Assembly (NCBI GenBank): GCA_017694295.1
Contig: JADINA010000039.1
Span: forward strand, 22,957-86,956
Length of the DNA stretch: 64,000 nt
DNA from: Candidatus Alloenteromonas pullistercoris
GTDB taxonomy: Bacteria > Bacillota_I > Bacilli_A > RFN20 > CAG-826
Reading direction: 5' to 3'
Made by a program: the position numbers and the translations under genes. Shown here one piece after another: positions 20,501 to 41,476 of the stretch. Position 1 is the first letter of the stretch, and each line of letters starts with the position of its first letter. The notes under the pieces are model-generated. The model saw nothing but the letters and a program-made list of their open reading frames with translations. It was not told the DNA's origin and did no database searches.

Positions 20501-22588
20501 CTAATTCGCGGCTTTGCGCATCGCCTTCCTTTGCCTCCTTTTGCCTTCGTTCCTTTCCCTTGCCAAATCCAGCCTATCCCCAATATAGGAGAGAAGGCGG
20601 TCGGCAAGGCAAAGATAAAAGGAGCCGGGGGAAAGAAACTCGGGGAAGAGGAAAAAGGAAAGGAAAAGCAAGAAAAGAAGGAGAAAGCAAAGGTGGGCGA
20701 AGCCACTATAAGAGGAGACAAGGCAAAATCCAAGGGGGAGGCAGAGCAGGAAAAGGAAGGCAAAGGAGCCAGTCGCCTTAAGAAAGGCAAAAAGGAGCAT
20801 TTTCCAATCGGGTTTAGCGAAGAAAATGGCAAAAAGGGCGAATGAAAGCATGAAGGCAAAAGAGCAAATGGCCACCCAAAGCGAGGGGAAGAAGGCACTA
20901 AGCAGCCCAAAAAGGGCGTATCCAAGAAGCGGGACAAAGACCAAATAGCCCCACTTGCCCGCCTTCCCCTGAATCGAAAGGGCAAATAAAAGCAAAAGCA
21001 AGGAAAGGGTATTGCCCAAAAGAGGGTAAACAAAGCCCTTATCCGAAAAGGCGAATAGCCCGATGGGCAAGGCGATGGCGAATATCGCCGCAAGGGCGAG
21101 GGAAAATCCATAAGTCCAGCCGCCGCGTAGAAGCGGGATGCGCTCGGCAGGCGAATACCCCTTTGCCTTCGCCCCGCCTTTTAGCAAGCTCAAAACCGGA
21201 AGGAAGATGAAAAGAAGGGAGAGGTAGCCTTTAACGTCGGGGATCAAAAAGGAGGTCGATTCGTTGATGCCGTGGACGGAGATGGCGAGGAAGGAAAGAA
21301 GGGAACAATAGGCGATATTGCGATCAGCCTTGAAGGCCTTAATGAGCCAAATCACGTAGCAAACGATAAAGAAAAGATAGATGAGGCAGCGTAACGCCCC
21401 GCCCGAGCAAAGCAGATGGATCGGGCCGTTATGGACGAAGAACATGTTGTTTAGCGAGGTGGCCCCGGTGTCGAACATGGCGCTTAAAAGGTGGCCGAGG
21501 TTATATTCCCCGACGCCAAAAAGGAAGCGGATGGGGTCGTCTTTAAGCATGTTGACCGCCCCAAAGTATATGTCGCGGCGCGACAAAATGGTCGGGCCGG
21601 AGGAGAACTGTAGCGAATCGAGGAAGTTGCGGGCGAACCGGCTTAAGACGTCCTCCCCGCCGAAAACCTCGAAATAGCCAAGCAAAAAAAGCGTAACCGG
21701 CAAAAGGATGGAAAGCGATAAGGCCAGGCAATCGCGAAGCGGATGCCGCTTTAATGTCAAGGCGAAGCGAAAAACCCCAAAGGCGGCGATGACGGCGATC
21801 GCGATGAGGATCGAGGTCTTCGAGACGACAAAGAATAGCTCGACCAAAAAGAAACAAAGCAATACGTAGTTTAGGAAGAAGGGGCGCTTGGAATGGAGGT
21901 AGCAAAGGGCGAGGCAGCCAAACACCAGGCACGTCCCGAAGGTGTTGCGGTTGTAGAAGAAGCTTTCGGGCACGAGGTCGGAGTCCAGCGCCTTCTCGCT
22001 ATGGAAATACTGGGCATAGGCCTCCGGCTCCTTGAAGAAGGAATAAAGGCAGGCGAAGAAGGCGACGAAAACGACCCCAAAGAAAAAGAAATTGAGGGAA
22101 TAGCCGCCTTTTAGGCAGGAAGGCAAGACGGCGAAAAGCAAATAGAAATAGGCGCAGCCAAGGAGGTAACTCAGGATGTAGCGGACCCTATCCGAAAGAG
22201 CAAGGGCGTAGGAATACTGGGTGGCGGTCCCGTCTAGATGGACGGTGAAGCCGCTGACTTCCGAGGGGAAGACGAGCAAGGCCACTAGGTTGCCAAGGAA
22301 CAAAAGCGAAACGGCGAGTAAAACCGGCCAATTGAGCTTCGGCCTCGCGTATTTGTAGGCGGCTAGGCAAAAAAGGGCGATCGAAAGGACTGAGGCGGCA
22401 TAGCAAAGCCCATACTCAATTGGGTCCATGCTCAAGTGGTTTGGCTCGTTGAAGAAGGCGATGGCCTCCGAGCAATACGCCCCTAGGCAAATAGAGAGCA
22501 GAAACAGCCCGGCAAGCAGGAAAGGCGGCGCATTCCGTGACCTTCCCAAGCCGAATATCGAAGCGAGTTTTGCGGGCATATTGCGCAT
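20501..22588 (-). CDS. Large O-antigen ligase / Wzy_C-like polytopic membrane protein
   Basis: 695 aa with many TM segments. Carries FFYNRNTFG, SKTS, a large loop with SRRDIY, FGVG and VHNGPIHLLCSGG, in the WaaL/O-OTase layout. Confidence 0.7.
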   Translation of the reverse strand: MRNMPAKLASIFGLGRSRNAPPFLLAGLFLLSICLGAYCSEAIAFFNEPNHLSMDPIEYGLCYAASVLSIALFCLAAYKYARPKLNWPVLLAVSLLFLGNLVALLVFPSEVSGFTVHLDGTATQYSYALALSDRVRYILSYLLGCAYFYLLFAVLPSCLKGGYSLNFFFFGVVFVAFFACLYSFFKEPEAYAQYFHSEKALDSDLVPESFFYNRNTFGTCLVFGCLALCYLHSKRPFFLNYVLLCFFLVELFFVVSKTSILIAIAVIAAFGVFRFALTLKRHPLRDCLALSLSILLPVTLFLLGYFEVFGGEDVLSRFARNFLDSLQFSSGPTILSRRDIYFGAVNMLKDDPIRFLFGVGEYNLGHLLSAMFDTGATSLNNMFFVHNGPIHLLCSGGALRCLIYLFFIVCYVIWLIKAFKADRNIAYCSLLSFLAISVHGINESTSFLIPDVKGYLSLLFIFLPVLSLLKGGAKAKGYSPAERIPLLRGGWTYGFSLALAAIFAIALPIGLFAFSDKGFVYPLLGNTLSLLLLLFALSIQGKAGKWGYLVFVPLLGYALFGLLSAFFPSLWVAICSFAFMLSFALFAIFFAKPDWKMLLFAFLKATGSFAFLFLLCLPLGFCLVSSYSGFAHLCFLLLFLLFLSFFLFPEFLSPGSFYLCLADRLLSYIGDRLDLARERNEGKRRQRKAMRKAAN

Positions 22589-22623
22589 TATATACGCCTA
22601 ACGCGATAAAGGGTAGGAAGCAT

Positions 22624-22651
22624 AAAAAAGCCGCCCTCTTGCGGGGGCGGC
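22624..22651 (-). terminator. Intrinsic terminator after the TasA-like gene
   Basis: GCCGCCC/GGGCGGC stem followed by TTTTTT on the minus strand. Confidence 0.75.
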
Positions 22652-22677
22652 CATTTGCCGAAAGGCGAAGTCGGATA

Positions 22678-23589
22678 TTAGGCGCCGACGTAGGTGTCGA
22701 GGCCGGTGAAGCCTAGGACGACGTTGACGAGCCCGCCGTTGGCGGCGTCGGAGATGGCACAGGTACCTTCGAGCCAGATGGCGCAGGTGAGGTAGATGCT
22801 CTCGCCGCCTTTGATGGTCCCAACATAGGTCGAGACGTCGGTGGTGTTAGCCTCAACTCCTTTGCCGTCTTGATCCTCGATTGAGGGGATGGTGGCGATG
22901 GTCGAGTAGAAGTTCTCGGCGTCCGGTTCGGAATAGGTGGCAAGGGTTCCAGCGTCATCGACATACTTGTCATCGACGTCGCTGAGGTTGTCGTTGTTCA
23001 TGAAGACGAGGTTCCCGGCCGAGGTGAGGTCGGTCATGGCGTGGGTGCCGGTCGCGGAAGCCTGCTTGGCGATGGCGACCCGAATCCAATCGGCCATGGC
23101 CTTGTCTTCGCTGTCATCGCTTTGGACCGGGTTGATCCGGGTGTTTTCCGGATCGAGGTAGACGTCAAGCGAGCCGATGCCTGATTCGGCGGTGTTGGTG
23201 ATGGTCAGCGAGAACTGGACGAACCCGGTGTCGCCATTGTATGCGACATAGCCATCCGGGGTGTTGTCATCGCTGAAGGAGGAATTGCCGGAGGAGACGT
23301 AATCGGAATAGAAATAGGTCCCGTCTTTCGAGGAGAGGTCGATGAGGGGAGCGGACCCGAAGTTGGCGGTGGCCGAGGCGGTCCCGTTGCCGGTGGCCTC
23401 GTTTATCCCTTTGGGGTTGCCGATTGAGATCGCGAGGCTGCCGTTGGGGTTTTTGGCGGTGATGTTGCTGATGGAGGCGCTCGCGCTGCGGGAGGTGGTG
23501 AACCAGGCGTAGGTGGCGGTGGCCCCAGCGGCGACGGTGCCGACGGTCAAGGCGCTGAGGGCGACGAGAAGTTTGCTTTTGGTTTTCAT
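22678..23589 (-). CDS. Secreted protein with SipW-type signal peptide (candidate major filament subunit, TasA/camelysin-like)
   Basis: MKTKSKLLVALSALTVGTVAAGATATYAWF leader; acidic Ser/Thr/Gly-rich body; C-terminal IWLEG. ATG 23589 has a GAAAGGA RBS. Confidence 0.75.
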   Translation of the reverse strand: MKTKSKLLVALSALTVGTVAAGATATYAWFTTSRSASASISNITAKNPNGSLAISIGNPKGINEATGNGTASATANFGSAPLIDLSSKDGTYFYSDYVSSGNSSFSDDNTPDGYVAYNGDTGFVQFSLTITNTAESGIGSLDVYLDPENTRINPVQSDDSEDKAMADWIRVAIAKQASATGTHAMTDLTSAGNLVFMNNDNLSDVDDKYVDDAGTLATYSEPDAENFYSTIATIPSIEDQDGKGVEANTTDVSTYVGTIKGGESIYLTCAIWLEGTCAISDAANGGLVNVVLGFTGLDTYVGA

Positions 23590-23731
23590 GAAAAAGAAAT
23601 CCTTTCGTTTTCGGCTCAAAATAGCCGGTGCGTCGGGATTCCAATGGCTTTAACGTAACAACGCTAAATATGTTTGGGCAATGCTCCGCAAGTCCGGCTT
23701 TGGGCGAGCCGCTTCCTTGTTCGGCGAGGCT

Positions 23732-23899: not shown

Positions 23900-24286
23900 A
23901 TGGATAGGAAAAAGAAAATAACGCTGGCGGCGATCGGGGCGGTTAAGGCCGCGATCATCGTCTTCGGGCTCGTGGTGTCGATAATCGTCATCGCCACCTA
24001 CATTTCCCCCGAGGAAAGCGGGGACTACCTGACGCAGAACGTCGCCGAGAACGGCCCGTTCATCGGCTGGCTGCAAAATAACCCCACCCCATTCTTCCTG
24101 CTCATAGTATTGCCACTATTGATAATCTTGGCCGCCGACATCGTCTATTTGGTCTATTTCGCCCTCAAGCGCGAATCCAAGCTAAGTGAGAAAGAACGCG
24201 ACGCGATCGCCGAGAAAGCCAAAGAAGAGGCGAGGGCCGAATTGCTTAAGGAACTAGGCGAGGAGGAAAAAGGGCAAGGCAAGTAA
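23900..24286 (+). CDS. Small two-TM membrane protein with charged C-terminal tail
   Basis: 128 aa with two hydrophobic helices. Upstream TGCTATAAT and a downstream hairpin plus T-run. Confidence 0.75.
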   Translation: MDRKKKITLAAIGAVKAAIIVFGLVVSIIVIATYISPEESGDYLTQNVAENGPFIGWLQNNPTPFFLLIVLPLLIILAADIVYLVYFALKRESKLSEKERDAIAEKAKEEARAELLKELGEEEKGQGK

Positions 24287-24307
24287 GCCCCACCCCAGCT
24301 AACCTTT

Positions 24308-24340: not shown

Positions 24341-24371
24341 TTGACATGCCCGCCTCCTCGCCTACAAAATA

Positions 24372-24458
24372 GCCGCGTGAAAAGCAAAGCCAGGGAAACC
24401 TGGCGGCGCAAAACTAAAGGGCCTACCCCGAATCGGAACGGCAGCCAGTTACCCCGGA
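24372..24458 (+). ncRNA. GEMM-I (cyclic-di-GMP-I family) riboswitch, A20 variant
   Basis: GCAAA-GCCAGG-GAAA-CCTGGC-GGCGCAAAACTAAAGGGCCTA...GGCAGCCAGTTACC follows the GEMM-I layout. It lies downstream of a TTGACA box at 24341. Confidence 0.85.
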
Positions 24459-24614: not shown

Positions 24615-25592
24615 TTGGCCAAGGAAGACAAAATCAAAAAGCCGAAGGAGAAGAAGCCACGCAAGCAAGGCAAAGGCGAGAGCCTGCCGAAGATCGACGC
24701 CCCGGGGATGCTTGGTCAAAGCACGCCGGAGAAAGTCGCCAAAAGGCATAGGCGCCGCACCATCGCCGCTTTCGTGGCCTCGATAAGCTCCGCGGTTTTG
24801 ATCGCATTATCGATCATCGCCTTTTTGGGCCGGGTTTCCGGCAATTTCACCGTGACCATCGACCCCCGGGACTACACCAACCGCCTGACCCTGAGTCAAG
24901 GGATAGACGGATCGCGCACGCCGACGTTATTAGGCTCTGGCATCGAAAACGCCAAGCCGATCGCCGCAAGCGAGGTGTTCCGCTACCTCGAAAACGAGGT
25001 CTACCCGCTTCCGAAACAAGAGGCGGAGGGCTCGCATAACTACGAGGTCGGCGAGGGCGAGGAGCGAAGCGCCTACGCCATGGTCTACACCTTCTACCTC
25101 CACAACCAAACCGACGAAGAGCTGCCCTACCGGCATAGCTTCTTCATCGAGAGTTACAGCTCCCCGACCAACGACGCGCTTGAGCCATATGAGTATCTGC
25201 GCATCGCCCTTTACGTAAACGAGCCCGCCTCCTTCCCCGGGGACGAGGAAACGCACGAAAAGGAAATATATGGGCTGGAATCGAATTACCCGGGCACGGG
25301 CGAGGGGGAAAACGACACGCGTGAATGCGTCTCCTCCTTCACTGGCCCAGTCGATGAAGACGGCAACCCGATAACCCGCTACCCCCGCACCGATTCGGGG
25401 GAGGAGAGTAGCGGCTATTGCACCCCCTTCATCGACTCCACCGGCCACATAATCGACGAAACCAGGACCATCCTCCCGCTGCAGACGCTCCGCTACACGG
25501 TCGTCGCCTGGCTTGAGGGCTTCGACCCCGAATGCCGGGGAAAGGCCCCCGAGGGGGCTTCCATGACTTTCCGGATGGAGTTCGACGCCTGA
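24615..25592 (+). CDS. Membrane-anchored paralog of the WLEG-type filament subunit family
   Basis: TTG start after GGAGG. Lys-rich N-tail, one TM segment, then YTFYLHN, YLRIAL and VVAWLEGFDPEC. Confidence 0.7.
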   Translation: MAKEDKIKKPKEKKPRKQGKGESLPKIDAPGMLGQSTPEKVAKRHRRRTIAAFVASISSAVLIALSIIAFLGRVSGNFTVTIDPRDYTNRLTLSQGIDGSRTPTLLGSGIENAKPIAASEVFRYLENEVYPLPKQEAEGSHNYEVGEGEERSAYAMVYTFYLHNQTDEELPYRHSFFIESYSSPTNDALEPYEYLRIALYVNEPASFPGDEETHEKEIYGLESNYPGTGEGENDTRECVSSFTGPVDEDGNPITRYPRTDSGEESSGYCTPFIDSTGHIIDETRTILPLQTLRYTVVAWLEGFDPECRGKAPEGASMTFRMEFDA

Positions 25593-26644
25593 TGGATAGT
25601 GACCTCAAGACGATAAAGAGCCTCCTTCTTTTAGGGGCCTCCGCCTTCATTTTCGCCCTAACCGGGGCCGGGGTCGCGACCTATGCCTTCTTCGACATAT
25701 CGGAGGGGGCGAAGGTCAGCCACCTCGAATTCGGCGTCGATGGGGGCGGGTCGTTGCTGCTTGGGTTAAAGGAAAACCTAAGCGGCGATATAACCTATTA
25801 CCAAGAAGTCGACGACGAAACGCTCTCCCGCCATTACCCGAGCTACTCCCCGGGTGCCTCCTTGTCCCCGGTGTCCTCGATGATGCGGGACAGCTGGCTT
25901 CTCCCCTCCTTCGACCTAAATACCGGCTTCCCGGTGTTTTACGGGGATTATGGGGAATACGACGACCCAACCTCGCCCCGCGTCGCCAGGCAAGGCTATA
26001 TCCAGTTCGAGGCCTATTTCCTTTCTGACGAAGACGGCTACCTCTACCTAGGTCAAGACACGGGGATAACCCCGCTAGAGGAGGAAAACCGGGCAAAAGA
26101 AGAGGAGAAAGAGCTCCCCGATGGGACGCTAGACAAGGTTGTCGAGGGGGTGAGAGTCTCCTTCCTCTCCTGCCTTGGCTATCAGATCCTCGATTGCCGC
26201 GGCGGGGAGAAGGCGACCTACGCCGGGCCGCTTGACATAAACGGGGACGGTTATCGGGAAATAGATTCCTCCGGGAGGGAAATACTCTATGGAGAATATG
26301 AGGGTGAGCCGGTATTCGGCGAACCGCTATCCGAAGAGGCCATAAACCCGGACGGAACCAAAAGCGCTAAGGGGAGCCGACCGCTACTTGAAGAGGAATC
26401 GGCGCAAAACGGATTGACGTTTGCCAAGGAAGAGAGCAAGACGCTTGAAGAGCTTACCAACCCAGGCACCACATCGACCGTCTCCGCCGCCCCGATAGCC
26501 AAGCTAAGCGCCAACGTCCCGGAAAGGACGGTCATCACCATCTACCTCGAGGGATGGGATAAGGAGGTCAACGACCTCGTCGAGGACGGATCGTTCTCGC
26601 TTAAGCTCGAGTTCAACGCATTGCTAATGCCTTTATCGGCATAA
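25592..26644 (+). CDS. Secreted protein with SipW-type signal peptide (WLEG-type subunit)
   Basis: ATG overlaps the upstream TGA. Leader ends GAGVATYAFF; carries GYIQFEAYF, VRVSF and IYLEGWD. Confidence 0.75.
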   Translation: MDSDLKTIKSLLLLGASAFIFALTGAGVATYAFFDISEGAKVSHLEFGVDGGGSLLLGLKENLSGDITYYQEVDDETLSRHYPSYSPGASLSPVSSMMRDSWLLPSFDLNTGFPVFYGDYGEYDDPTSPRVARQGYIQFEAYFLSDEDGYLYLGQDTGITPLEEENRAKEEEKELPDGTLDKVVEGVRVSFLSCLGYQILDCRGGEKATYAGPLDINGDGYREIDSSGREILYGEYEGEPVFGEPLSEEAINPDGTKSAKGSRPLLEEESAQNGLTFAKEESKTLEELTNPGTTSTVSAAPIAKLSANVPERTVITIYLEGWDKEVNDLVEDGSFSLKLEFNALLMPLSA

Positions 26645-26662
26645 AGGAAAGGGAGGAAGGAC

Positions 26663-28210
26663 ATGACCGCTTACTTCGATTACCTGAAGCACATGATAAT
26701 TGAGTTTTTCACCAACTTTGGGCTGTTTTTCTACGACGTCTTTGCCGGGCCTTGGAAAAGGGTGCCCGCCGAGATCGACTACTACAACTCCCTTTATGCC
26801 AACTACTCCCCCGACTTCGGGGCGGGCGGATGGTTCTTCTTCGTCCTTTTCCTCCTTCTTTTGCTAGCCGCGCTGGCCGCTTTCGGATACCTTATATACT
26901 ACCTTATCACCAAATACGTACATTTTAGGGCCAAAACCGAGGACGTAGGCAAATACCGGAGCGAGATTGAGCGGCTCAACCTCGAGCTTTACCACGCGAT
27001 ATCCGAAAAGGACCGGGTCCTCGGGCTTCAGGTCGCCTCCTTATCCGGTATCGCGCCCGTCTCTGAGGCAGGGAGCGCCAAAACCGAGAAAAAGGAAGAG
27101 GAAGGCGAAAAAGACGAAAGGCGCTTCCCCAAGCTTGCCAACGTCGACGCCGAATACCTCACCCCGATGCCGGCCACCAGGTTGCCAGATGACGCCGAGG
27201 GCATCGGCTTAAAGGGCATTTGCGAGCGCTTCCGCCTTTTCTGCGCCTCCCAGCTCGGCCTTTATTACACCATCGACACGATGCGCGAGTTCATCGCCTC
27301 GATCGGGACGAGCAAGATCATCATCCTCGAGGGCATCTCCGGCACCGGCAAAACCTCCTTGCCCTACGCGTTTGGCCGCTTTTTGAAGCATAACGCCACC
27401 ATCTGCTCGGTCCAGCCAAGCTGGCATGACCGCTCCGAGCTACTCGGCTATTACAACGACTTCACCCACCGCTTCACCGAGACCGAGTTCCTGCGGGCCG
27501 TATACGAGGCGACTTACCGCGACGACCTTTCCGTCATCGTCCTCGACGAGATGAACCTCGCCCGCATCGAATACTATTTCGCCGAGTTCCTCTCAATCAT
27601 GGAAATGCCTAACGTCAGCGAGTGGAACATCTCGCTTGTCGCGGCCCCAAGGGAGGATGACCCGCGCCACCTTAACGAGGGGAGGCTCCTAATCCCGCAA
27701 AACATCGTCTTCGTCGGCACAGCCAATAACGACGACTCGACCTTCACCATCACCGACAAGGTCTACGACCGCTCGATGTCGCTTTTCTTCGACAACAAGG
27801 GCATCGCCTTCGAATCGGAATTCACCGAGGCCTGCCCCCTCCCCTACGACTATCTTTCCTCCCTTTTCGCCAAAGCCAAGGTCGATTACCCGCTTTCGGC
27901 GAAGACCCGGGAGAGGTTTGAGCAGCTAGACAGCTTCGTCATCGCCAAGTTCAAGCTGGCCTTCGGCAACCGCATACTCCGCCAGCTTGAATCCTTCGTC
28001 CCCTGCTATTGCGCCTGCGGCGGGACCGAGCTAGAGGCCGTCGACTACATGTTTGAGTCGAAGATACTCAAGAAGTTCGAGGTTTTGAACGTCTCCTTCC
28101 TCCGCGATGAGCTGCTTGAGCTCGATACCGAGCTAAGCAAGCTTTTCGGCAAAGGGGAGTTCAAGCGGAGCAAAGCCAAGATAAGGGGGTTCCTCAAGCA
28201 GGTGTCCTGA
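26663..28210 (+). CDS. Membrane-anchored McrB-like AAA+ NTPase
   Basis: Hydrophobic N-terminal region with a long TM helix and a coiled coil. Walker A GISGTGKT, Walker B IVLDEMN, LARIEYYF and GTANNDDST (McrB-type N-x-x-D). Confidence 0.8.
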   Translation: MTAYFDYLKHMIIEFFTNFGLFFYDVFAGPWKRVPAEIDYYNSLYANYSPDFGAGGWFFFVLFLLLLLAALAAFGYLIYYLITKYVHFRAKTEDVGKYRSEIERLNLELYHAISEKDRVLGLQVASLSGIAPVSEAGSAKTEKKEEEGEKDERRFPKLANVDAEYLTPMPATRLPDDAEGIGLKGICERFRLFCASQLGLYYTIDTMREFIASIGTSKIIILEGISGTGKTSLPYAFGRFLKHNATICSVQPSWHDRSELLGYYNDFTHRFTETEFLRAVYEATYRDDLSVIVLDEMNLARIEYYFAEFLSIMEMPNVSEWNISLVAAPREDDPRHLNEGRLLIPQNIVFVGTANNDDSTFTITDKVYDRSMSLFFDNKGIAFESEFTEACPLPYDYLSSLFAKAKVDYPLSAKTRERFEQLDSFVIAKFKLAFGNRILRQLESFVPCYCACGGTELEAVDYMFESKILKKFEVLNVSFLRDELLELDTELSKLFGKGEFKRSKAKIRGFLKQVS

Positions 28211-28219
28211 TAGAAAACC

Positions 28220-30373: not shown

Positions 30374-30376
30374 CAG

Positions 30377-32778: not shown

Positions 32779-33494
32779 TTCTCATCATCGGCGAAAACGA
32801 AGACGCCATCCTCTATCTGCGTTCCCGCCTTGTCGACGAGCGTAAGGAAGTCGTCTTCCCCTCGCTCCAGGTATATCGGGGAAGGATGGGCAACGAGGAG
32901 GCGGCCATCGCCTCAATCGGCATCGGGCTCCCATTAGTCGCCATAAACGTCGATAACCTGCTTCGGAAATACGAGCCCTACTTGGTTTTCAACGTCGGCT
33001 CCGTCGGGGCGATTAAGCCCTCCCTCCACCAAGGGGACGTCTTGATCGCGGAACGTTATTACGCCCATGGCATCGACTATTCCGGGGACGGGAAAAACGT
33101 ATACGGGCAGCTAAACGGCCTTCCGCCCTTCTTCGTCGCCGACATGGGGCTATGCGCAAGCGCCGAGAAGGCGGCCTACGAGATCGGGGGACATTACGTC
33201 GAGAGGGGGTCGCTTCTTTCCTCCGACATCAGGATCTACGACGATAAGCCGGTTTTTGACGATCTGCAAAGGCGCTTTGCCGGCAATTCGCGCCTCACCT
33301 GCCTCGATAACTGCTCCTACGCCATCGCGCTTTCTTGCTACTTGCATAACGCCTCCTTGCTAACCGTCAAATCCGTCAACTACGAATCGGGGGAGGAGTC
33401 GCAGCGGCTCAACTTCCGCCGCAAGGGGCTTGAGCTCATGCCCTTCGTCGGCAAAGTCGTCTCGGCGGTGTTGCTCCGCAACTCCAAAATCTAG
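32775..33494 (+). CDS. MTA/SAH nucleosidase (PNP/UDP fold)-like protein with degenerate active site
   Basis: SIGIG, VFNVGSVG, GDVLIA and YGQL match MtnN, but the EME and RAISD motifs read DNC and KSVNY. Confidence 0.7.
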   Translation: MILIIGENEDAILYLRSRLVDERKEVVFPSLQVYRGRMGNEEAAIASIGIGLPLVAINVDNLLRKYEPYLVFNVGSVGAIKPSLHQGDVLIAERYYAHGIDYSGDGKNVYGQLNGLPPFFVADMGLCASAEKAAYEIGGHYVERGSLLSSDIRIYDDKPVFDDLQRRFAGNSRLTCLDNCSYAIALSCYLHNASLLTVKSVNYESGEESQRLNFRRKGLELMPFVGKVVSAVLLRNSKI

Positions 33495-33567
33495 CCTCCC
33501 CGAGGTCTTGCCCTTTATATGAAATATAAAAGTGTTGCCAAGCGCCGGCAAACTTGTAAAATAGACC

Positions 33568-33648
33568 TTGTCAAAGGCAAACTTAGGGCGACCTAGGGGC
33601 GCAAAACTAAAGGGCCTCACGCAGGCAGCCAGCTACCGCAAATGACAA
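33568..33648 (+). ncRNA. GEMM-I (cyclic-di-GMP-I) riboswitch, G20 variant
   Basis: GGCAAA-CTTAGG-GCGA-CCTAGG-GGCGCAAAACTAAAGGGCCT...GGCAGCCAGCTACC, closed by TTGTCA/TGACAA. Upstream TTGCCA-N16-TAAAAT. Confidence 0.85.
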
Positions 33649-33649: not shown

Positions 33650-36625
33650 ATGGACAGCCGGCAGAAAGCGCATAAAAGCCCAAAGGGGGCGAAAACCGCC
33701 CTCTTTTTCGCCTGCCTTGCCTCCTTCTTCTCCCTTACCCTTGGGCTAGGCGGAGTTACCTTAGCCGCCTATTTAAACGCCGTCGAGGCCAAGGAAAACG
33801 CCATCCTCGACTTCAATGACCTTAGCTCCTACTTCGCCAGGGTCGAGGAAAACGATGGCGAAAGGGTTTTCCACCTTAATGACGAAACCCATCTTCAAAA
33901 CCTGCAAAGGCTCGTTTCCATCGGTTTGTTTGGCCCTAGCGACACCTTCGTCCTCGATAACGACATCTCCTGCACCGGCACACTTTACCCAATCGGGACC
34001 GACGACATGCCCTTCGACTCCACCTTCAACGGCAACGGCCACGTCATCTCCAATTTGCACGTCATATGCGCGGATGGGCGCGACGCCGGGCTTTTCGGCT
34101 ACACCTCGATCAACTCCAGCGTCAAAAATCTCATCCTAAGCGCCCCAAAAATCGAGGTGACCGCAAATTCCAACGATTTCAACGACGACGGGAAAGGCAT
34201 ATCGGGCTCCCCCATAGAGAAGACCTATGGCCCGTTGGCGTCCCTTATGCCGGAAATCAACTTCGTTAGCCAGGATAACATGGCCGTCGACGGCAGGATA
34301 AACGTCAAAAATGGGACCCAACCCGGGCAGACCGCCGTCATCACGGGTTTCCCCGATAGCCTAAGCTCCGGGGAAGCCGAGGTCGAAATACTTTACGAAT
34401 CCAGCGACGAAAACCTATTAACGCTTACCCAAACCACCGACGGCTACCAGGCCGAGTGCAAACCCAACCCCGAATCCAACGCCCCGAACTTCGACCTTTA
34501 CCCGGTAACGGTCGACGCCAAGGCGCAATACGAGGTTAACGGGGTGTTCGGCTATTACGTGCTTGAGCGTTACCAGTTCAACATCCTCGGCAACGGCAAC
34601 GTCTCGACCGCCGTGACCGAGATAGACGACCCCGACGACGAAAGCGACAATCCGGTCCAGATAACCGTCCATTCCGGGGCGTTTAAGACCATCCACCCCG
34701 ATTACGATGAGCATAACCTCAACGTCGGCTTCTTCATCGGCCATTGCGACGGCTCGGCCAACCACCTCGGCCTTTACGGGGGCAACACCAACTCAACCGG
34801 CCAAAACGGGACCATCGTCATCAACTCCGACTCCCGCGTAAGCGCCTATTCGGCCAGGACGCTAATCGGCAAGACCAGGAAAGACAACCCGGTCGACGCC
34901 TCCGCCGGGGACACGATGAACATCATCTACGATTACCGTGGGGCCATCAACGGCACCCCCGACCAAAACGGGCTCATCCACGATTTCGAGCTGAAGGTTA
35001 AAGACTACGAATACGGGCATGCAAACTTTGGATCGGGCTATGGCTTTGGCTCATCGATTAGCGACTACTCCAATAACGGCAGCCCCGATCAGCCGGTGAC
35101 CGATTCCGATTCCCTCAAGCAGCAGCAAAACGCCGAAACCATGACCGAAAACGTCGTGACCAACCCATCGATGAGGGAATACTCCTCCTTCTACCCGGGT
35201 ACCAACCAAACGCTTGCCGACTCCACCACCGAGGCCTATAAGCCATCCTCAAGCAACTGGGAGGTCGGGGAATACTCCGATAACGCCGACACCGCCGAAA
35301 GCGATCCCGGCAGCTTCAACGCCCAGGTCATAGACGGCGGCCTTGGTGCCGGGACGTGGACGAAGCTAAACGAATTCATCAAGCAATATTGGTTCCTGGG
35401 GACTTATACTTACCATCATCAGCTTCGCCTAACTCGGGGATACAACATCAACAACGGCTTCAAGATCTGGTCGACCAAAAACCTTTCGCCGATCTTCACC
35501 GAGAACCTCTTCTACATTAATTTCCATGTCTCCTACGTCGCGACCCGCAAAAAGGGGACGGCCGAGAACCAAAATAGCTTTCAGATACTGTTCAATTCCT
35601 ACAACCCAGAGGTCCGGGGCTATGACAAATGGTCGTTGGGAGATTTAGTCGGCTACAATCCCTACCCCGATGAATGGACGTCCTCTTATTTGCAATACCT
35701 TTTCTGGCAGGACCTATCCAACCCCCAAAACGTCGACTTCACCGACGGCGGCCAGCTCAATGCGCTATATAACCCTGCCGACCATCCGATCATCGACGAC
35801 GGCAAGCTCCATAGCGACGTCATCACCTTGACCATCGACCAGCAAAACGGCACTTGGTGGAGCAACGCGTTCCAGTCGATCCGTAATTGGTGGAAAGATC
35901 TTTGGAACGGGGGAAGCGAGGAGCAAACCGAAAACCGCGAGGCCCGTTACCCGATGTTCGCCTTCGGCATGGGATCCAACGTCCGCCCCAATGGCGGAAT
36001 CTATGCCTCCGAGGACCATCAATCAACCGCGAATTACTACGCCGACTTGATTTATGATGAAAACCAGCAGACATATCAAAATTCGCGCTTCGTCAACTCC
36101 GCGGTTCCCGGAAGCACGATCGCCGACTTAAGGGGAACCCGCCTATTTGACTCCGATAACGGCGCCTACCAAACCTATGCCCCGTCGGGAAGCAGCGAGG
36201 AAGGCTGGGTCGGGACAGCTTTTGGCAGCGGCAACCACTATAACGACAGCGTGCGAGGATATTACAACAATCAGGAACGCGGCTATTTCAATTCCTACTT
36301 CAAGGTCGAAAACGGCACCAAGCTTTACATCCGCGACTTCCAGATCACCTTCACCAACCGGCTTGGCAACACCGAGGACATCATCTACAAAGTCGACTTC
36401 GTCCCAAACACCGACCTAGGCTTCGACGAGAACTCGCAAACCTGGAACGCCTGGCCGGACGATAGCAACGTCCAGATCGGCTTTAACATGGAAAAAACCG
36501 ACGGCGGGGTCAATTTCCGCTTCTACAGGGACAATAGCAACAACGTCTACGGTTATTACAGCAACGCCGCCTATTCGCTTACCAACAACTCCGGATACGA
36601 CGACGCGATTTTGGCGCAGGGGTAA
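33650..36625 (+). CDS. Large secreted protein with GLUG/beta-helix-like N-terminal domain (adhesin candidate)
   Basis: Leader ends GGVTLAAY. Carries PIGT...FDSTFNGNGHVISNL and AGLFGY...VKNLIL; Asn/Ser/Tyr-rich, 991 aa. Confidence 0.7.
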   Translation: MDSRQKAHKSPKGAKTALFFACLASFFSLTLGLGGVTLAAYLNAVEAKENAILDFNDLSSYFARVEENDGERVFHLNDETHLQNLQRLVSIGLFGPSDTFVLDNDISCTGTLYPIGTDDMPFDSTFNGNGHVISNLHVICADGRDAGLFGYTSINSSVKNLILSAPKIEVTANSNDFNDDGKGISGSPIEKTYGPLASLMPEINFVSQDNMAVDGRINVKNGTQPGQTAVITGFPDSLSSGEAEVEILYESSDENLLTLTQTTDGYQAECKPNPESNAPNFDLYPVTVDAKAQYEVNGVFGYYVLERYQFNILGNGNVSTAVTEIDDPDDESDNPVQITVHSGAFKTIHPDYDEHNLNVGFFIGHCDGSANHLGLYGGNTNSTGQNGTIVINSDSRVSAYSARTLIGKTRKDNPVDASAGDTMNIIYDYRGAINGTPDQNGLIHDFELKVKDYEYGHANFGSGYGFGSSISDYSNNGSPDQPVTDSDSLKQQQNAETMTENVVTNPSMREYSSFYPGTNQTLADSTTEAYKPSSSNWEVGEYSDNADTAESDPGSFNAQVIDGGLGAGTWTKLNEFIKQYWFLGTYTYHHQLRLTRGYNINNGFKIWSTKNLSPIFTENLFYINFHVSYVATRKKGTAENQNSFQILFNSYNPEVRGYDKWSLGDLVGYNPYPDEWTSSYLQYLFWQDLSNPQNVDFTDGGQLNALYNPADHPIIDDGKLHSDVITLTIDQQNGTWWSNAFQSIRNWWKDLWNGGSEEQTENREARYPMFAFGMGSNVRPNGGIYASEDHQSTANYYADLIYDENQQTYQNSRFVNSAVPGSTIADLRGTRLFDSDNGAYQTYAPSGSSEEGWVGTAFGSGNHYNDSVRGYYNNQERGYFNSYFKVENGTKLYIRDFQITFTNRLGNTEDIIYKVDFVPNTDLGFDENSQTWNAWPDDSNVQIGFNMEKTDGGVNFRFYRDNSNNVYGYYSNAAYSLTNNSGYDDAILAQG

Positions 36626-36630
36626 AGGCG

Positions 36631-37581
36631 ATGGGCAAAGGCAAAAGGAACCTCATAATCTCAATCGCGGCCTCATTGCTCGCGACCTTTTCCCTTTCTG
36701 TTGCGACCTACGCCTGGTTTTTGACAAGCCTCAAGGCCAACCCCGAGCAGCTCATCCTCAATAGCGGAGTCTCCTCCGTCTACGTCGACATGATGGGCTA
36801 TGCCTGCTCGCTTCGCGGCAACCCCTCTTCCTCCACCTCTGGGCAAATAAGCGAGCCCAACGGCCTTTCGATCGACCGAAGCGGGGACATCGAAGTCTAC
36901 GGCGGCACCCAATCGACCTCGACCGCCACCGTCCACGCCTCCTTCCTCACCCAGATAGACACCTACGACTACCTAAGCCTTTCCCAAGGCGAAGTCGGGC
37001 TGAGCCGGGACTATCTGCCCCGGGTTTACCTCGCCCTTCAATACTCCCAGGATAACGTGGGAGGGTATGTAAGAGCCTATCTAGGCGAACTAAACGAGGC
37101 GGGAGACGGCTTGACGGGGAGCTTAAGCATAACGATGGGCGACCAAGCGCTTTCTGGCTACCTTCGGGTCGCCAATAAGCTCGAAAGCGCCCAATCCATC
37201 GCCGCTTCCGGACAAAGCGACATGATCGACTATTACGATACCGGATCCCTCTCCTTCCCCGCTTCATGGGAAGGCGTCCTCGCCTCAGAGGCCTCTCCGC
37301 TTTATTCCTCCTCTAGCGAGCCGGCCCAGCTTTATGTGCCGGCGCTACAAACCCAGCTTGGCGGGGAGCTTTGCTATTCGGTGGGGTCGCTACTGGAGAT
37401 CTCGGTCGACCCGTTCCAGTTCTATTCCGCCCTCCTTTCCATTTCCGCCTCCAACCCATTGGAGGTTTCTAAGATCGCGATATCCTTCTCCTTCTCGCTC
37501 TACCTTACCTATTCCAACGCCCCCTTTGAGTCGTCCCCGGGGGTCGAATACCCGATAATCAGCTTGGAGGAAGGGGCATGA
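36631..37581 (+). CDS. Secreted protein with SipW-type signal peptide
   Basis: Leader MGKGKRNLIISIAASLLATFSLSVATYAWF. Confidence 0.75.
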   Translation: MGKGKRNLIISIAASLLATFSLSVATYAWFLTSLKANPEQLILNSGVSSVYVDMMGYACSLRGNPSSSTSGQISEPNGLSIDRSGDIEVYGGTQSTSTATVHASFLTQIDTYDYLSLSQGEVGLSRDYLPRVYLALQYSQDNVGGYVRAYLGELNEAGDGLTGSLSITMGDQALSGYLRVANKLESAQSIAASGQSDMIDYYDTGSLSFPASWEGVLASEASPLYSSSSEPAQLYVPALQTQLGGELCYSVGSLLEISVDPFQFYSALLSISASNPLEVSKIAISFSFSLYLTYSNAPFESSPGVEYPIISLEEGA

Positions 37582-38528
37582 AAGGCAAGTTCTCCAAGTC
37601 GCTCATATTGCTTTGCCTGCCCCCGCTAAGCTGCCTTGGGGCTTTAGGCGTCGCGACCTACGCCTGGTTTTCCTCCTTCAGGTCGGCCGAGGCCAACGTC
37701 AACAGCATCCGCGTGGAGGCCCCCGGATTCGACGAATACGGCCTTTATTGCCTATCCATCAACAAACCCGCGGGAGCCGAGGTTTATTCCGGATACCCCG
37801 ATTACGCCTCCTTAGACGACGGCTCAAAGGCGAGCCGGATCTCGGGAAACGGCGACTTCATCGAGATAACCGATGGGTCGGAGGCCGCCTTGATGGAGGA
37901 TATGTTCCCCCTATCGTGCTTCACCTTCGCCTTGTTCTTAGGCGAATCCGACTTCACCTCGTTCCAAATCGGCATCGAAACCTCCTCCTCGCCTTCCGCC
38001 TCCAATTACGTTGAGGTCATAAGGGGCGGGCAAGCGACCTACGAAAGGGTCGTCCTCGCCGGGGCCATCGACGTCTATTCGAAAACCATCCCCCTAGCGG
38101 AGGGGGAATACGCCCCCGGGGCCTTGAATCTAAGCGAGTCGACCATCGCGAAGGTCAATTCCTTCATCACGACCGAGATGGGGGCGCTTGGAAGCTACCC
38201 CAACGTCACTAGGGAGGACCGCTTCGCCTTTAGCCAAAGCGAGGAGCAGGAGCCGGTTTCCTCTTCCCCCTACCGCCTTAATCGCGCCCTCACTGACGAC
38301 GTCATAACCCAAGGGGCCGATTATCTAGTCCTATTCACCGTCGAGTTCTCCGACCTGCCCTCGACCCACATGTCGCCTTTATCTAACGTCGAAGGCGGGA
38401 TCGAGGGAGCGTCTTATTGGCGTTATGACGAGTCCAGCAACCTTTCCACCGCCTATCAGGGGCTAAGCTTCGTTATTGATTCAGTTTCCGTCGTCGGCGG
38501 GTTTTTAAACGAAGGAGGCAGCATATGA
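37578..38528 (+). CDS. Secreted protein with SipW-type signal peptide
   Basis: Leader ends LGALGVATYAWF; ATGA overlap with the upstream gene. Confidence 0.75.
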   Translation: MKGKFSKSLILLCLPPLSCLGALGVATYAWFSSFRSAEANVNSIRVEAPGFDEYGLYCLSINKPAGAEVYSGYPDYASLDDGSKASRISGNGDFIEITDGSEAALMEDMFPLSCFTFALFLGESDFTSFQIGIETSSSPSASNYVEVIRGGQATYERVVLAGAIDVYSKTIPLAEGEYAPGALNLSESTIAKVNSFITTEMGALGSYPNVTREDRFAFSQSEEQEPVSSSPYRLNRALTDDVITQGADYLVLFTVEFSDLPSTHMSPLSNVEGGIEGASYWRYDESSNLSTAYQGLSFVIDSVSVVGGFLNEGGSI

Positions 38529-41476
38529 AAAGCAAAGATTGGCGCTTAAAAGCCATTTACATCGGGTTCGTCTCGCTTGGGATCGCCTATTTGGCCTCAT
38601 TGATCGGCTCTGGGGCGACCGGCATGGGATTGGCCCTTGCCATTTCCTCCTCCATCGCCCTTTTCCTCTTCCTTTCCCTTTGCGGGCTGCTTCTTCTTTA
38701 TAACGCGAAGAAAAGGGACGCCGAGGGGCGGATGAGGAAGGAGGTCATGGGCCAGCTCGACGATCTAAAGAAAGGGACGGCCAAGGTTTCGCCGCGCCGC
38801 TATGGCTTTTATGAGCTCGATTCCTTCCAAGAGGACATCAACTCCTTCATCGCCGCCTATTTAAGCTCCTCCCCCGATTCCGACGCCCCCTTGTATAAGG
38901 GCAAGCGCTACCTTTGCCCAAAAAGCGAATTCGAGGAGGCGATGCTCGAGGAGATAAAGCGAAACCGCAATTACCGCCAAGCCGTGCTCGCCATCGACAT
39001 ACTCGGCCCGGTAAACGAGCAGGCCAATGAAAAAGCCAAGGAAACCATCTTCGCCGCCTTCCCATACGCCATGCTCTCCTTAAGGGAGCCAAGGGGCTAT
39101 TACGCCTATATATACGACGCCGGCAGCGAATCCGAGTTCACCTCGCGGTGCCACCGCCTCCTTTCCGATTACGCCTACCAAAGCCAAGGGGGCGAGGAGG
39201 TTTCCTCCCTTCGCCTTGGCGGGGCCGTCTTCCCCCTTGTCCCGGCGGTCTCCCTCATCGATAGGGCCGAGAAAAGCCTGCAGGCGGAAGGGGATCTAAG
39301 CATCGATTCCGGGGACGGGGAGGCCTTTTTGCCCTCGCCGCGCTCCAACGAGGCGAGCCGGCGCAACATCAACCTCGCCAACTTCGAGAAGCTTTACCGC
39401 CAAACCCTGCTTTCCGATACAAGGGCGCGGCGCGAGCAGTCGATCTCCAAATCCCTCGCCTATTTCCTTGAAAGCGAGGGTTTCGACATCGGGGGGGCGC
39501 TTGAGTATTCCCGGCTTGACGAGAGCTATCGCGTCTATTGCGAGCAAAAGGCGAAAGGGTGCGCCTGCGCCTCGTTTTCCTCCTTTGGCAAATCGATTCC
39601 GGCCAGTTGGCTCGATCCGGCCTTTGAATGCGCCAAAGCCGACTTCCCCCTTTACATCCGCTACCTCAAAGACGCCCCCAAGCCGGTGATGGCCTTGATG
39701 CAGTCGCTTGGGGCCGAATCGGCTTTGCTCGCCCCGATTATCTGGGAAGGGCGCAAATACGGCTTCCTTTATCTCCTAAGCTCCCATTCGAAGGATTTGA
39801 CGCTCGAAGGCTTCGATAAGGCCCATAACCTCTATTCGATACTCTCCTCCTCCCTCATAGTCTCCCGCAACGTCGAGGAAGCGGGCGGGATGAGCAATCT
39901 GCTCGACCAGCTGGCCAAACGAAGCGACAAATACGTCTACTCCATCGACGAGAAGACGTTCCAGATAAAGGAATGCACCGCCAACCTCGAGAAGCGTTTA
40001 GGGGGGAAGGCGAAGGGCAGGCTATGCCACGAGGCCTTCTTCAATAGCCCCACCCCCTGCCTCAACTGCCCCATCCATTCCGGGACCAATAGCTGCATCA
40101 TCTCCTCCATCTCGCCCAAGGAATCGACGGTTTCCCTGGTCAGCAAAAGCAAATCGGGGCTGGCGACCCTCATCATCGAGCCGGCCCAGAAAGCCCCCTC
40201 GGGGTCCTCGCTCGTCGACAAGGCCCTCATCATCCCCTCGCCCAAGGGCTTCCGGGCCATGCTTTCGCGCGAGCTTATCGAGAAGGAGGGCTTCATCCTC
40301 GCCTTCCGGCTCCTCGATTCTGGGCAGAAGCTGCTTGACAACCCCGCCGAATCCAACTCGACCATCCTCCTGCAGGTGCTTGAGAACCTCCAGATCACCC
40401 CATATTACGCCGACGCCTACCGCCTTGACGACGTGACCATCGCCATTCGGCTTAGCGGGCTTACGACCAGAAGCGGCCTTTACAAGGCGGTGGAGACGAT
40501 CCAATCCGCCATAAGCGAGCCGATATCACTTGGCGGAGAGCCCTATACCCCCCATTACGCCTATTGCTCCGTCTCCTACCCAACCGAGGCCGGAAGCGGC
40601 GCCGACATGCTTTCCCTATTGAAGACCGAGCTTTCCCGCAGCGCTGAGTTCGGGGAAGGCTATTTGGCCGAGGTCGGGCGCAATAGCCTCCGCAAAGCTG
40701 GCAGAAGCGAGTATTTGATGGAGCTGCTTGAGGCGAGTTTGGAAAAAGACGCCGCAAGCTTCGGGCTCACCCCGATCGCCGAGACCTCGACCGGGAAGCC
40801 ACGTTATTATGAGGCATTCTTGACCCTACTTGACGAAAACCGGCTTATAAGCTCCTCGGAGCTGAATAGCCTTCTAAAAGACGAGAAGATGAGGCGTGAC
40901 CTCGATTTCTCCGTCCTCCGCGGGCTTGGGGCCCTTTATCGCGATTACGGCAAAGGCCTAATGAAGGCCAGCGGGGTCCATTGCTTCTATTACCGGATGA
41001 AAGCGTCAAGCTTCCTTGACCCCTCCTTTGGGGAATTGCTTGAAAGCCTATTCGCCACCTACCACTTCCACAAAGGGGGGTTGGGGCTTTTGTTCGAGGC
41101 CAAAGACCTCTTCTCCAGAGGCGGCTACGCCCAAGAAGCCATCAAGAAGGCGACGGAAATCGGGGCGAGGATCGGGGTTTACGACTTCGACGCCTCCTCC
41201 TCGGGGTCCGACTTCCCCTACGACGGGCTATCGCTATTCATCTATAGCTCCGGCTTCATCAAGGACACGATGAACTCCGAATCGACGGCTTTGCTTTTGC
41301 TCCAATCGCTAAACCGCATCGGGGTTTCCGGCGGCATGGCGGTCGCTAGCGGCATAATCGACGAGACCGCCCGTTACTACGCCGCCGAGATGGGCTTTAA
41401 GCTAGGCAAAGGCAAGCTTTACGGCTCCTCGCCCATTTCAAAGGAGCGCTTCATCGCCTCGCTTTCCTACAAATAG
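38525..41476 (+). CDS. Two-TM signalling protein with degenerate GGDEF, GAF/PAS-like, GGDEF and EAL domains
   Basis: Cyclase-like remnants (LAIDI, LGGAVFP, YRLDD, SYPTEA), GAF-like LLAPIIWEGRKYGFL, a CHEAFF...PCLNCP motif and EAL-like YEAFL. Confidence 0.65.
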   Translation: MKSKDWRLKAIYIGFVSLGIAYLASLIGSGATGMGLALAISSSIALFLFLSLCGLLLLYNAKKRDAEGRMRKEVMGQLDDLKKGTAKVSPRRYGFYELDSFQEDINSFIAAYLSSSPDSDAPLYKGKRYLCPKSEFEEAMLEEIKRNRNYRQAVLAIDILGPVNEQANEKAKETIFAAFPYAMLSLREPRGYYAYIYDAGSESEFTSRCHRLLSDYAYQSQGGEEVSSLRLGGAVFPLVPAVSLIDRAEKSLQAEGDLSIDSGDGEAFLPSPRSNEASRRNINLANFEKLYRQTLLSDTRARREQSISKSLAYFLESEGFDIGGALEYSRLDESYRVYCEQKAKGCACASFSSFGKSIPASWLDPAFECAKADFPLYIRYLKDAPKPVMALMQSLGAESALLAPIIWEGRKYGFLYLLSSHSKDLTLEGFDKAHNLYSILSSSLIVSRNVEEAGGMSNLLDQLAKRSDKYVYSIDEKTFQIKECTANLEKRLGGKAKGRLCHEAFFNSPTPCLNCPIHSGTNSCIISSISPKESTVSLVSKSKSGLATLIIEPAQKAPSGSSLVDKALIIPSPKGFRAMLSRELIEKEGFILAFRLLDSGQKLLDNPAESNSTILLQVLENLQITPYYADAYRLDDVTIAIRLSGLTTRSGLYKAVETIQSAISEPISLGGEPYTPHYAYCSVSYPTEAGSGADMLSLLKTELSRSAEFGEGYLAEVGRNSLRKAGRSEYLMELLEASLEKDAASFGLTPIAETSTGKPRYYEAFLTLLDENRLISSSELNSLLKDEKMRRDLDFSVLRGLGALYRDYGKGLMKASGVHCFYYRMKASSFLDPSFGELLESLFATYHFHKGGLGLLFEAKDLFSRGGYAQEAIKKATEIGARIGVYDFDASSSGSDFPYDGLSLFIYSSGFIKDTMNSESTALLLLQSLNRIGVSGGMAVASGIIDETARYYAAEMGFKLGKGKLYGSSPISKERFIASLSYK

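Follow-up and report, generated by a model that had tools for sequence, protein, structure and literature searches.

The subject of this analysis is a gene cluster of Candidatus Alloenteromonas pullistercoris, contained in a stretch of 64,000 nucleotides (nt) from contig JADINA010000039.1 (assembly GCA_017694295.1, positions 22,957 to 86,956 of the forward strand). This whole stretch is referred to as the window, and its numbering is used throughout. The open reading frame (ORF) listing and family scans revealed two operons lying side by side on the plus strand, each consisting of a promoter-like site, a class I riboswitch aptamer for cyclic di-GMP (c-di-GMP) and a set of tightly packed genes. 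They encode a SipW-type signal peptidase, leader-bearing substrates, a transmembrane (TM)-anchored McrB-like GTPase and a DUF2357 protein. Comparison with related genomes supports these four components as one conserved unit, and the locus is a well-preserved member of CoCoPALM, a class that has been named but not characterised.

Organisation of the two riboswitch-led operons

Operon 1 comprises seven genes (24615-33494, plus strand) and operon 2 comprises four (33650-41476, plus strand). Within both operons the genes either overlap or are separated by no more than 18 nt. The promoter-like sites (10 of 12 matches in each case) have the form TTGACA, 18 nt, CAAAAT for operon 1 (24341-24370, +) and TTGCCA, 16 nt, TAAAAT for operon 2 (33535-33562, +). 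The aptamer starts 3-4 nt past this site in both operons, the distance being 3 nt for aptamer 1. An intrinsic-terminator-like hairpin with a 14-pair stem (41478-41510, +) closes operon 2.

Both aptamers were identified with the Rfam model RF01051, whose gathering score is 35: aptamer 1 (24373-24456, +) at 63.0 bits and aptamer 2 (33566-33640, +) at 52.9 bits. Each spans model positions 1-87 of 87, and the start codon of the first gene of operon 2 is found 9 nt beyond aptamer 2. They are the only two RF01051 matches in the whole assembly. Model position 11 is A in aptamer 1 and G in aptamer 2. We take this position to be the ligand-contacting G20 of the Vc2 RNA, whose replacement by A presumably accompanies 3'3'-cGAMP recognition in some GEMM-I RNAs, and because of this difference the two aptamers may differ in ligand preference.

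The signal peptidase gene (30377-31204, +) encodes a 275-amino acid (aa) SipW-type (archaeal/endoplasmic reticulum-type) signal peptidase I, which has two TM segments and ends in a charged tail. The protein passes TIGR02228 (52.9 bits, cut-off 51.85), and it scores 53.7 bits with NF046067, the equivalog model of Bacillus subtilis SipW, whose cut-off is 190; it is therefore regarded as a SipW-type enzyme and not as an orthologue of B. subtilis SipW. In the alignment of 151 homologues, Ser53 and His97, which we take to be the catalytic pair, are each present in 139 sequences, and the Gly-Asp box is conserved in 141/151 and 115/151.

A search of all 5976 ORFs of at least 60 aa (903,701 residues) in the 1.42-Mb genome retrieved exactly four copies of the motif ATYA[WF]F. 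All four are located in this locus, no more than 50 residues from the start of the ORF, and this occurrence is not due to chance. The motif is carried by leadA (313 aa, exported, ATYAWF; 22678-23619, minus strand, with its own promoter-like site at 23760-23732 and a terminator at 22652-22629), leadB (350 aa, ATYAFF; 25592-26644, +), leadC (316 aa, ATYAWF; 36631-37581, +) and leadD (316 aa, ATYAWF; 37578-38528, +). Three of these genes (leadB, leadC and leadD) are preceded by a riboswitch, leadA being the exception. The SipW-cognate signal peptide model, which we take to be TIGR04088, was not reported for the leader proteins in the NCBIfam scan with E values up to 0.1.

The leadB product belongs to a widely conserved family and is proposed to be the major subunit. 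The first gene of operon 1 (24615-25592, +) encodes a 325-aa membrane-anchored paralogue of the same family, with a Lys-rich cytoplasmic N-terminus, a single TM segment (residues 53-71) and no SipW motif, which is proposed to act as an anchor or base subunit. The common origin of both proteins was apparent from iterated profiles, which converged on 178 (leadB) and 151 (paralogue) ORFs, 146 of them common, in 74 loci. The remaining leader proteins are less widespread: leadC defines a narrow, lineage-specific family and shows weak similarity to leadA beyond the leader (26% over 228 aa, E 6.5e-7), while the profile search with leadD found no homologue in the fetched related loci. Operon 2 begins with the gene for a 991-aa adhesin-like protein (33650-36625, +), which has a large ectodomain behind a single hydrophobic segment at its N-terminus; homologues of this protein were found in 4 of 100 loci.

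The McrB-family GTPase (515 aa; 26663-28210, +) is tethered to the membrane by a TM segment at residues 60-78, which is trailed by positively charged residues and followed by a conserved, helical-looking linker and an AAA+ domain with Walker A, Walker B and NxD(D) motifs (AAA_5, 22.7 bits, cut-off 22). When the GTPase profile was compared with PDB, Escherichia coli McrB was the sole match (E 1.9e-5). Both Walker motifs, N355 and D357 are invariant among 23 aligned homologues, and D358 is at least 90% conserved. The next gene (28220-30373, +) encodes a 717-aa protein containing the McrC N-terminal domain DUF2357 (PF09823, 33.6 bits, cut-off 23.3; residues 28-196) and a Lys/Glu-rich tail of ~390 aa, a putative coiled coil judging by its composition. 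No nuclease or other family was detected in this protein by Pfam, including a scan of the tail with E values up to 10. The SipW gene begins 3 nt beyond the DUF2357 gene.

The other genes of the operons are related to c-di-GMP turnover or to ligand binding. A 525-aa membrane protein (31201-32778, +) contains an intact EAL phosphodiesterase domain (PF00563, 222.9 bits), in which the segments EAL, N, E-x-T-E, DDFG, K-I-D, AE..E and QGY are identical to those of MorA (PDB 4rni). It is followed by a 239-aa protein with the fold of methylthioadenosine/S-adenosylhomocysteine nucleosidases (PNP_UDP_1; 32775-33494, +), which scores 77.8 bits with TIGR01704 (cut-off 73.8). In the alignment to 4qez and 1z5o, Ala, Cys and Tyr take the place of Glu12, Glu174 and Asp197 (E. 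coli numbering), presumably the catalytic residues, and the protein is regarded as a pseudo-enzyme and possibly a ligand sensor. The last gene of operon 2 (38525-41476, +) encodes a 983-aa protein with two TM segments and a degenerate GGDEF-EAL tandem. Pfam detects only its C-terminal EAL part, and the profile of the family (15 sequences) matches the GGDEF-EAL tandems of DosP, MorA, LapD and FimX over profile positions 570-1004. The EAL copy is considered degenerate because its match is weak (44.4 bits) and because several catalytic segments are replaced, as judged by direct reading of the sequence; the protein is a candidate c-di-GMP receptor. It also carries a motif (residues 501-516) with three cysteines, C501, C512 and C515, which are invariant across the 15-member family and may be metal- or redox-sensing. 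The assembly contains two EAL-domain genes, both in this locus, and two GGDEF genes (78.3 and 76.6 bits), which encode membrane proteins and are arranged in tandem on another contig (G000:C35, L113 3885-6012).

An earlier note on this DNA, made from the sequence without database searches, had listed a SipW-type Ser/His peptidase, four A-T-Y-A-[W/F]-F leader genes, a membrane-anchored paralog, two GEMM-I riboswitches, an EAL phosphodiesterase, a degenerate GGDEF/EAL protein, a degenerate nucleosidase, a TM-anchored McrB-like NTPase with a DUF2357-like partner, and close gene packing from 24615 to 33494 and from 33650 to 41476. Nearly all of these features were found where the note had placed them, and the scores, conserved residues and intergenic gaps given above bear them out. 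The single label that we could not confirm is "GLUG-type" for the 991-aa protein: no Glug match was obtained with Pfam even at E values up to 1, and its Atlas neighbours, Glug clusters included, remained below threshold (0.76-0.80).

Conservation of the SipW, substrate, GTPase and DUF2357 unit

Of 41 related genomes, 32 contain a homologue of the GTPase; among them are 22 of the 24 genus members sampled and representatives of other families in the order. With this query, no homologue was retrieved from the other nine genomes, one of which (G009) is listed as 100% complete. Comparison of 20-kb stretches revealed a recurring gene order: anchor paralogue, leader subunit, GTPase, DUF2357 protein, SipW, EAL protein and nucleosidase fold. 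The full order was seen in genomes G015, G004, G007, G005 and G017, as well as in G026, which belongs to a different family, and the GTPase-DUF2357-SipW trio alone occurs in further families. The DUF2357 orthologue of G015 shares 58% identity over 729 columns and was missed by BLAST under composition-based statistics.

The wider distribution of the module was examined by a pattern scan of one genome per species (185,579 species). The scan yielded at least 600 candidate stretches, of which at least 586 were confirmed, and the best 80 were examined. With at least 586 genome contigs in this collection, the module is widespread among Bacillota of the gut and rumen. The best 80 loci come from metagenome-assembled genomes labelled Erysipelotrichaceae, Bacilli, Acholeplasmataceae, Anaeroplasma, Ruminococcus, Oscillospiraceae, Lachnospiraceae and Christensenellaceae. 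In 48 of them, referred to as well-flanked, the contig extends at least 3 kb upstream and at least 5 kb downstream.

The DUF2357 gene is located directly 3' of the GTPase gene in 46 of the 48 well-flanked loci. A SipW-type gene is present on the same strand within 6 kb in 47 (on both sides in 31), and at least one member of the subunit family is also present in 47, all these counts being based on in-house iterated profiles derived from the same loci and referring to the 80 loci most similar to the query. When SipW matches were sampled, nine out of ten passed TIGR02228. The number of subunit-family paralogues per well-flanked locus averages 2.4, with a maximum of seven. Whether the McrB/DUF2357 genes are syntenic with sipW and the subunit genes in other genomes had been fixed in advance as the question on which the proposal of the earlier note could fail; they are syntenic in 46-47 of the 48 well-flanked loci, in both Bacilli and Clostridia.

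In some loci the association goes as far as gene fusion. ORF 9828-12824 of L054, from a Ruminococcus-labelled genome, encodes a 998-aa protein in which DUF2357 (residues 68-167) and SipW (residues 779-960) are joined, as detected by both Pfam and NCBIfam. An ORF of the same length in L108 (11682-14660), also from a Ruminococcus-labelled genome, contains the SipW part, and its DUF2357 part was recognised by the in-house profile only.

The genome of Ca. A. pullistercoris itself carries a second, paralogous module without a riboswitch (contig G000:C33, L027 4091-13043, minus strand). This module encodes a 251-aa protein with a GTYAAL leader, a 296-aa SipW-like protein, a 593-aa McrB-like protein with multiple TM segments and a 373-aa DUF2357 protein (30.4 bits), followed by a Listeria-Bacteroides-repeat lipoprotein-like gene and genes for a 211-aa leader-like protein and an 884-aa secreted protein. 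The assembly contains exactly two SipW, two McrB-like and two DUF2357-like genes, all of which are located inside the two modules.

The association with riboswitches was also found in relatives. Hand comparison of the 26 full-length orthologous loci in the 41 related genomes revealed an aptamer upstream, on the same strand, in 14; in four of the 12 loci without an aptamer, the contig extends less than 1.2 kb upstream. With a covariance model based on ten of these aptamers, 54 sites were detected in 100 loci. At least one aptamer was present in 34 of the best 80 wider loci, where every site is on the strand of the operon. All 16 sites that were rechecked with Rfam were confirmed, two of them (L051 2061-2136 and L096 18483-18557) scoring best as the GGC variant RF03167. 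Several related operons are preceded by two or three c-di-GMP-I aptamers in a row (L069 122-445, L071 6145-6340, L051 1910-2140 and L088 14081-14280), L069 being the case with three. The placement of the unit under cyclic-dinucleotide riboswitches, which the earlier note had described for this locus, thus holds here and in many relatives.

Relation to CoCoPALM and other known systems

The earlier note had considered the system undescribed. However, a class combining McrB and DUF2357 homologues with a signal peptidase had already been named CoCoPALM in section 7 of a study by Bell, Makarova, Wolf and Koonin (eLife 2024, PMC11090510). According to that section, CoCoPALM is a large clade of NxD-motif McrB GTPases branching among CoCoNuT-like systems, in which the GTPase is fused to an FtsB-like transmembrane and coiled-coil domain and is associated with a signal-peptidase family. 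Coiled coils are present on both the McrB and the McrC homologues, the McrC homologue is usually without an active nuclease, and the motif is described as "NxD, usually followed by E or a second D" (PMC11090510). The class is treated there in one paragraph, without subunit families or experiments, and is deferred to a forthcoming publication. The main text of PMC11090510 does not mention c-di-GMP, riboswitches or EAL; its supplements may list gene neighbourhoods, possibly with EAL genes. Our literature search found no later treatment of CoCoPALM, nor of SipW with McrB, SipW with a c-di-GMP riboswitch, or McrB with pilus assembly.

The locus analysed here resembles CoCoPALM, as outlined in that section, in its NxD McrB-like GTPase placed on a TM, helical-looking N-terminus (with N355 and D357 invariant), in its nuclease-less DUF2357 partner with a long charged extension, and in the adjoining signal-peptidase gene. 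It differs from the published outline in having two riboswitch-led operons, c-di-GMP turnover and receptor genes, and a defined family of beta-sandwich substrates. What is new here is the detail and not the kind of system, namely the converging c-di-GMP circuit, the subunit model and the second paralogous module.

The tapA-sipW-tasA operon of B. subtilis and the sipW-bsaA operon of Clostridium perfringens are matrix-fibre operons controlled by protein repressors or temperature. In common with them, the locus has a dedicated SipW-type peptidase encoded beside substrates with G/A-T-aromatic-A-aromatic-F leaders, and an accessory or anchoring paralogue next to the major subunit; in addition, the TasA fibre is the best, though weak, structural neighbour of the subunit model obtained here. 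In contrast to these operons, the subunits lie outside the TasA/camelysin Pfam family and the locus contains an NTPase and riboswitches. To our knowledge, there is no NTPase in either tapA-sipW-tasA or sipW-bsaA.

With E. coli McrBC (PDB 6hz4, 6ut6 and 7vsr) the GTPase pair shares the AAA+ core, Walker A and B, an Asn/Asp signature and the position of the McrC N-terminal partner directly downstream. Unlike McrBC, it has neither a DNA-binding N-terminal domain nor a PD-(D/E)xK nuclease, its signature is NxD rather than NxxD, and it is membrane-tethered in a protein-export gene context. In Clostridioides difficile, c-di-GMP riboswitches control type IV pili, which use the PilB/PilT ATPases, and sortase-anchored adhesins. 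Both in that species and in this locus, a cyclic-dinucleotide riboswitch is found directly upstream of surface-filament or adhesin genes of Bacillota; here, however, the peptidase is SipW and the NTPase is derived from McrB.

Several archaeal filaments, namely Pyrobaculum bundling pili (7ueg), Sulfolobus threads (7pnb) and the Natrinema Tafi pilus (9p0a), are weak structural neighbours of the subunit, with Z scores (4.8-4.9) below the noise mark. The signal peptidase of the locus is likewise of the archaeal/endoplasmic reticulum type (TIGR02228). The archaeal filaments differ in showing no sequence similarity to the subunit, and we know of no McrB-like partner for them.

Possible function of the locus and its flanking genes

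We consider it moderately probable that this is a riboswitch-gated, two-operon CoCoPALM locus for a SipW-processed, membrane-rooted fibre, in which the GTPase pair gates or drives processing. According to this proposal, c-di-GMP produced by the two membrane GGDEF enzymes would bind the aptamers and switch both operons on. SipW would cut the ATYA/[WF]F leaders, and the released beta-sandwich subunits would form a surface fibre by strand complementation. The uncleaved paralogue would root the fibre in the membrane, while the 991-aa protein and the lineage-specific leader proteins would be accessory or tip components. A cytoplasmic GTPase ring and its McrC-like partner would be physically coupled to SipW, with GTP hydrolysis gating or driving the processing and release of subunits. 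The EAL enzyme of the operon would lower c-di-GMP and so provide negative feedback, the degenerate GGDEF-EAL protein would serve as a receptor, and the dead nucleosidase fold would act as a ligand sensor.

Two elements of this proposal follow from features of the proteins and of the genome. The GTPase ring and its partner are likely to sit on the cytoplasmic side next to SipW, since positively charged residues follow the TM segment of the GTPase and since fusions join DUF2357 to the cytoplasmic N-terminus of SipW. The organism may be wall-less, because no PF00905 penicillin-binding transpeptidase and only one weak Mur_ligase_M match were found in its genome (the assembly is 86.7% complete). 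Rooting of the fibre in the membrane would make sense in such an apparently wall-less cell. Of the fibre with its own NTPase module that the earlier note had proposed, the conserved unit of SipW, substrates, McrB and DUF2357 stands, and fibre assembly and the role of the GTPase are what we infer.

The earlier note had also expected TasA/camelysin-like subunits, and the structural evidence for this is mixed. The AlphaFold2 (AF2) model of leadB, representing the subunit family (70-sequence alignment), is a confident one (pLDDT 90.6, pTM 0.84) and consists of an N-terminal helix, which contains the leader, and a beta-sandwich. When this model was compared with 48,161 chains using VIA-align, the top row was the TasA fibre 8aur_A (Z 6.0, root mean square deviation 3.8, 141/233 residues), a score below the noise mark of the tool. 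Subunits or adhesins of strand-complemented pili or fibres accounted for 12 of the 14 top rows, among them CS17, CfaB, CooA, FimH, Sulfolobus threads, the Natrinema Tafi pilus and Pyrobaculum bundling pili. The beta-sandwich is thus predicted with confidence, whereas membership of the TasA/camelysin family finds no counterpart in Pfam, and the TasA-like fold of the leadB family is suggestive only. The complex prediction for two mature copies of leadB (residues 33-350) gave a score of 0.02 against a mark of 0.42, which is informative in neither direction.

A number of results weigh against the proposed fibre and its control. The structural matches of the leadB model (Z 4.1-6.0) lie under the stated noise level, unrelated models often reaching Z 7-8 according to the tool. 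Foldseek found no PDB match to the model with an E value of 1e-3 or lower, 8aur ranking 46th (E 0.46). Pfam searches with the five leader and anchor proteins at E values up to 10 detected neither TasA/camelysin (Peptidase_M73) nor any other family, and no match for these proteins was obtained in the NCBIfam scans. The leadC family (38 proteins) has only the leader in common with the leadB family (35 columns), and its AF2 model, from a 26-sequence alignment, is poor (pLDDT 56.6). On the side of regulation, the 186-nt expression platform is predicted to fold no better than shuffled sequences do (z -1.65), and the direction of the switch, ON or OFF, is therefore not called from structure. The RF01051 scan placed no riboswitch in front of leadA, and 21 of the 48 well-flanked loci lack one upstream. 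Pfam gave no FtsB/DivIC match on residues 1-150 of the GTPase at E values up to 10, and no experiment on any member of the class was found in the literature. The derivation of the co-occurrence counts from profiles of the very loci in which they were counted belongs here as well. A relation of the leadB family to superoxide dismutases, the sole PDB profile matches (E 0.017-0.15), was considered and rejected, as these values are at chance level.

Several of these results are what would be expected if no polymer were formed, that is, if the leader proteins served a wall-less cell individually, as surface adhesins, coat proteins or enzymes, and the GTPase pair were a regulator or quality-control device of SipW-dependent export. 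The lack of any significant match to a fibre subunit, including TasA in Pfam, fits such an explanation, as do the heterogeneity of the leader families, with leadC and leadB sharing the leader only, and the adhesin-like character of the 991-aa protein, which comes from weak Atlas neighbours. It accounts less well for the presence of several beta-sandwich paralogues in each locus (mean 2.4, up to 7), one of them uncleaved and anchored, an arrangement typical of multi-subunit filaments, and for the fact that the top structural neighbours are nearly all pilus or fibre subunits. We judge this alternative unlikely, although it is the strongest competitor of the fibre.

A role in cell division or membrane remodelling, with SipW substrates associated with the division apparatus or envelope of wall-less cells, appears very improbable. 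An FtsB-like N-terminal domain was reported for CoCoPALM in the section cited above (PMC11090510), no transpeptidase was found in the genome, and the module belongs to the conserved core of small genomes. On the other hand, Pfam did not detect FtsB/DivIC here, the homologue was not retrieved with this query from 9 of 41 related genomes, including the one listed as 100% complete, and a locus that is controlled by c-di-GMP riboswitches and has its own EAL and receptor genes would rather be expected to serve a conditional, lifestyle-type function.

The least probable explanation is that the pair belongs to the conflict systems of the McrBC/CoCoNuT kind, anti-phage or other, and merely travels with surface genes. 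It draws on the McrBC descent of the pair, on the branching of CoCoPALM among CoCoNuT-like systems reported in PMC11090510 and on a match (133.4 bits, in two stretches) between the GTPase and PDC-M26A, a candidate-defence model of PADLOC; in the same library no match was obtained for SipW or for the DUF2357 protein. It is opposed by the lack of a detectable nuclease or effector domain, by a membrane anchor in place of a DNA-reading domain, by the fixed position of the pair between subunit genes and SipW in 46-47 of the 48 well-flanked loci, by its fusion to SipW in some loci, by its occurrence in 22 of the 24 genus members sampled and by its location behind a riboswitch, all of which are atypical of mobile defence islands.

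The SipW-processed, membrane-rooted fibre remains the preferred explanation. A bolder version of it is offered as a tentative proposal, which we hold to be rather doubtful: CoCoPALM would be an unrecognised NTPase-powered filament machine, in which an McrBC-derived membrane GTPase ring, coupled to SipW via its McrC-like partner, spends GTP to process TasA-like subunits and deliver them to a fibre rooted in the membrane. In gut Bacilli which, like this one, have a small genome and apparently no wall, the whole c-di-GMP network would serve this machine, with its two cyclases, its pair of riboswitches, its single phosphodiesterase and its degenerate receptor, and aptamer 1 may answer a second cyclic dinucleotide. 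Should the proposed mechanism hold, a restriction-enzyme motor would have been rebuilt into a protein-export or filament-assembly device, which would add a third way to power surface fibres to those represented by type IV pilus ATPases and by chaperone-usher or sortase systems. All detectable c-di-GMP outputs of the 1.4-Mb genome (both riboswitches and both EAL genes) converge on this locus, which makes its signalling logic directly testable.

Two further genes flank the operons. A 128-aa protein with two TM segments and a Lys/Glu-rich tail is encoded at 23900-24286 (+), a position kept just upstream of the operon in close relatives. An iterated profile started from this protein drifted onto SipW tails (127 of 143 matches) and was discarded. 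The gene at 20501-22588 (minus strand) encodes a 695-aa polytopic membrane protein with ~15 hydrophobic segments, which resembles Wzy_C/O-antigen ligases. It gave no match in the Pfam and NCBIfam scans; its Atlas feature score to Wzy_C clusters was 0.99, and a PglL-type O-oligosaccharyltransferase was among its structural neighbours. This gene is a neighbour outside the conserved core, present in just 2 of 100 related loci. It adjoins leadA, the leader gene without a riboswitch, and its product could glycosylate a surface protein.

Finally, DNA near-identical to the segment 24300-34200 of the window (0.39-0.47 of sampled words) was found in chicken-gut and faecal metagenome runs from four studies, besides the probable source sample.

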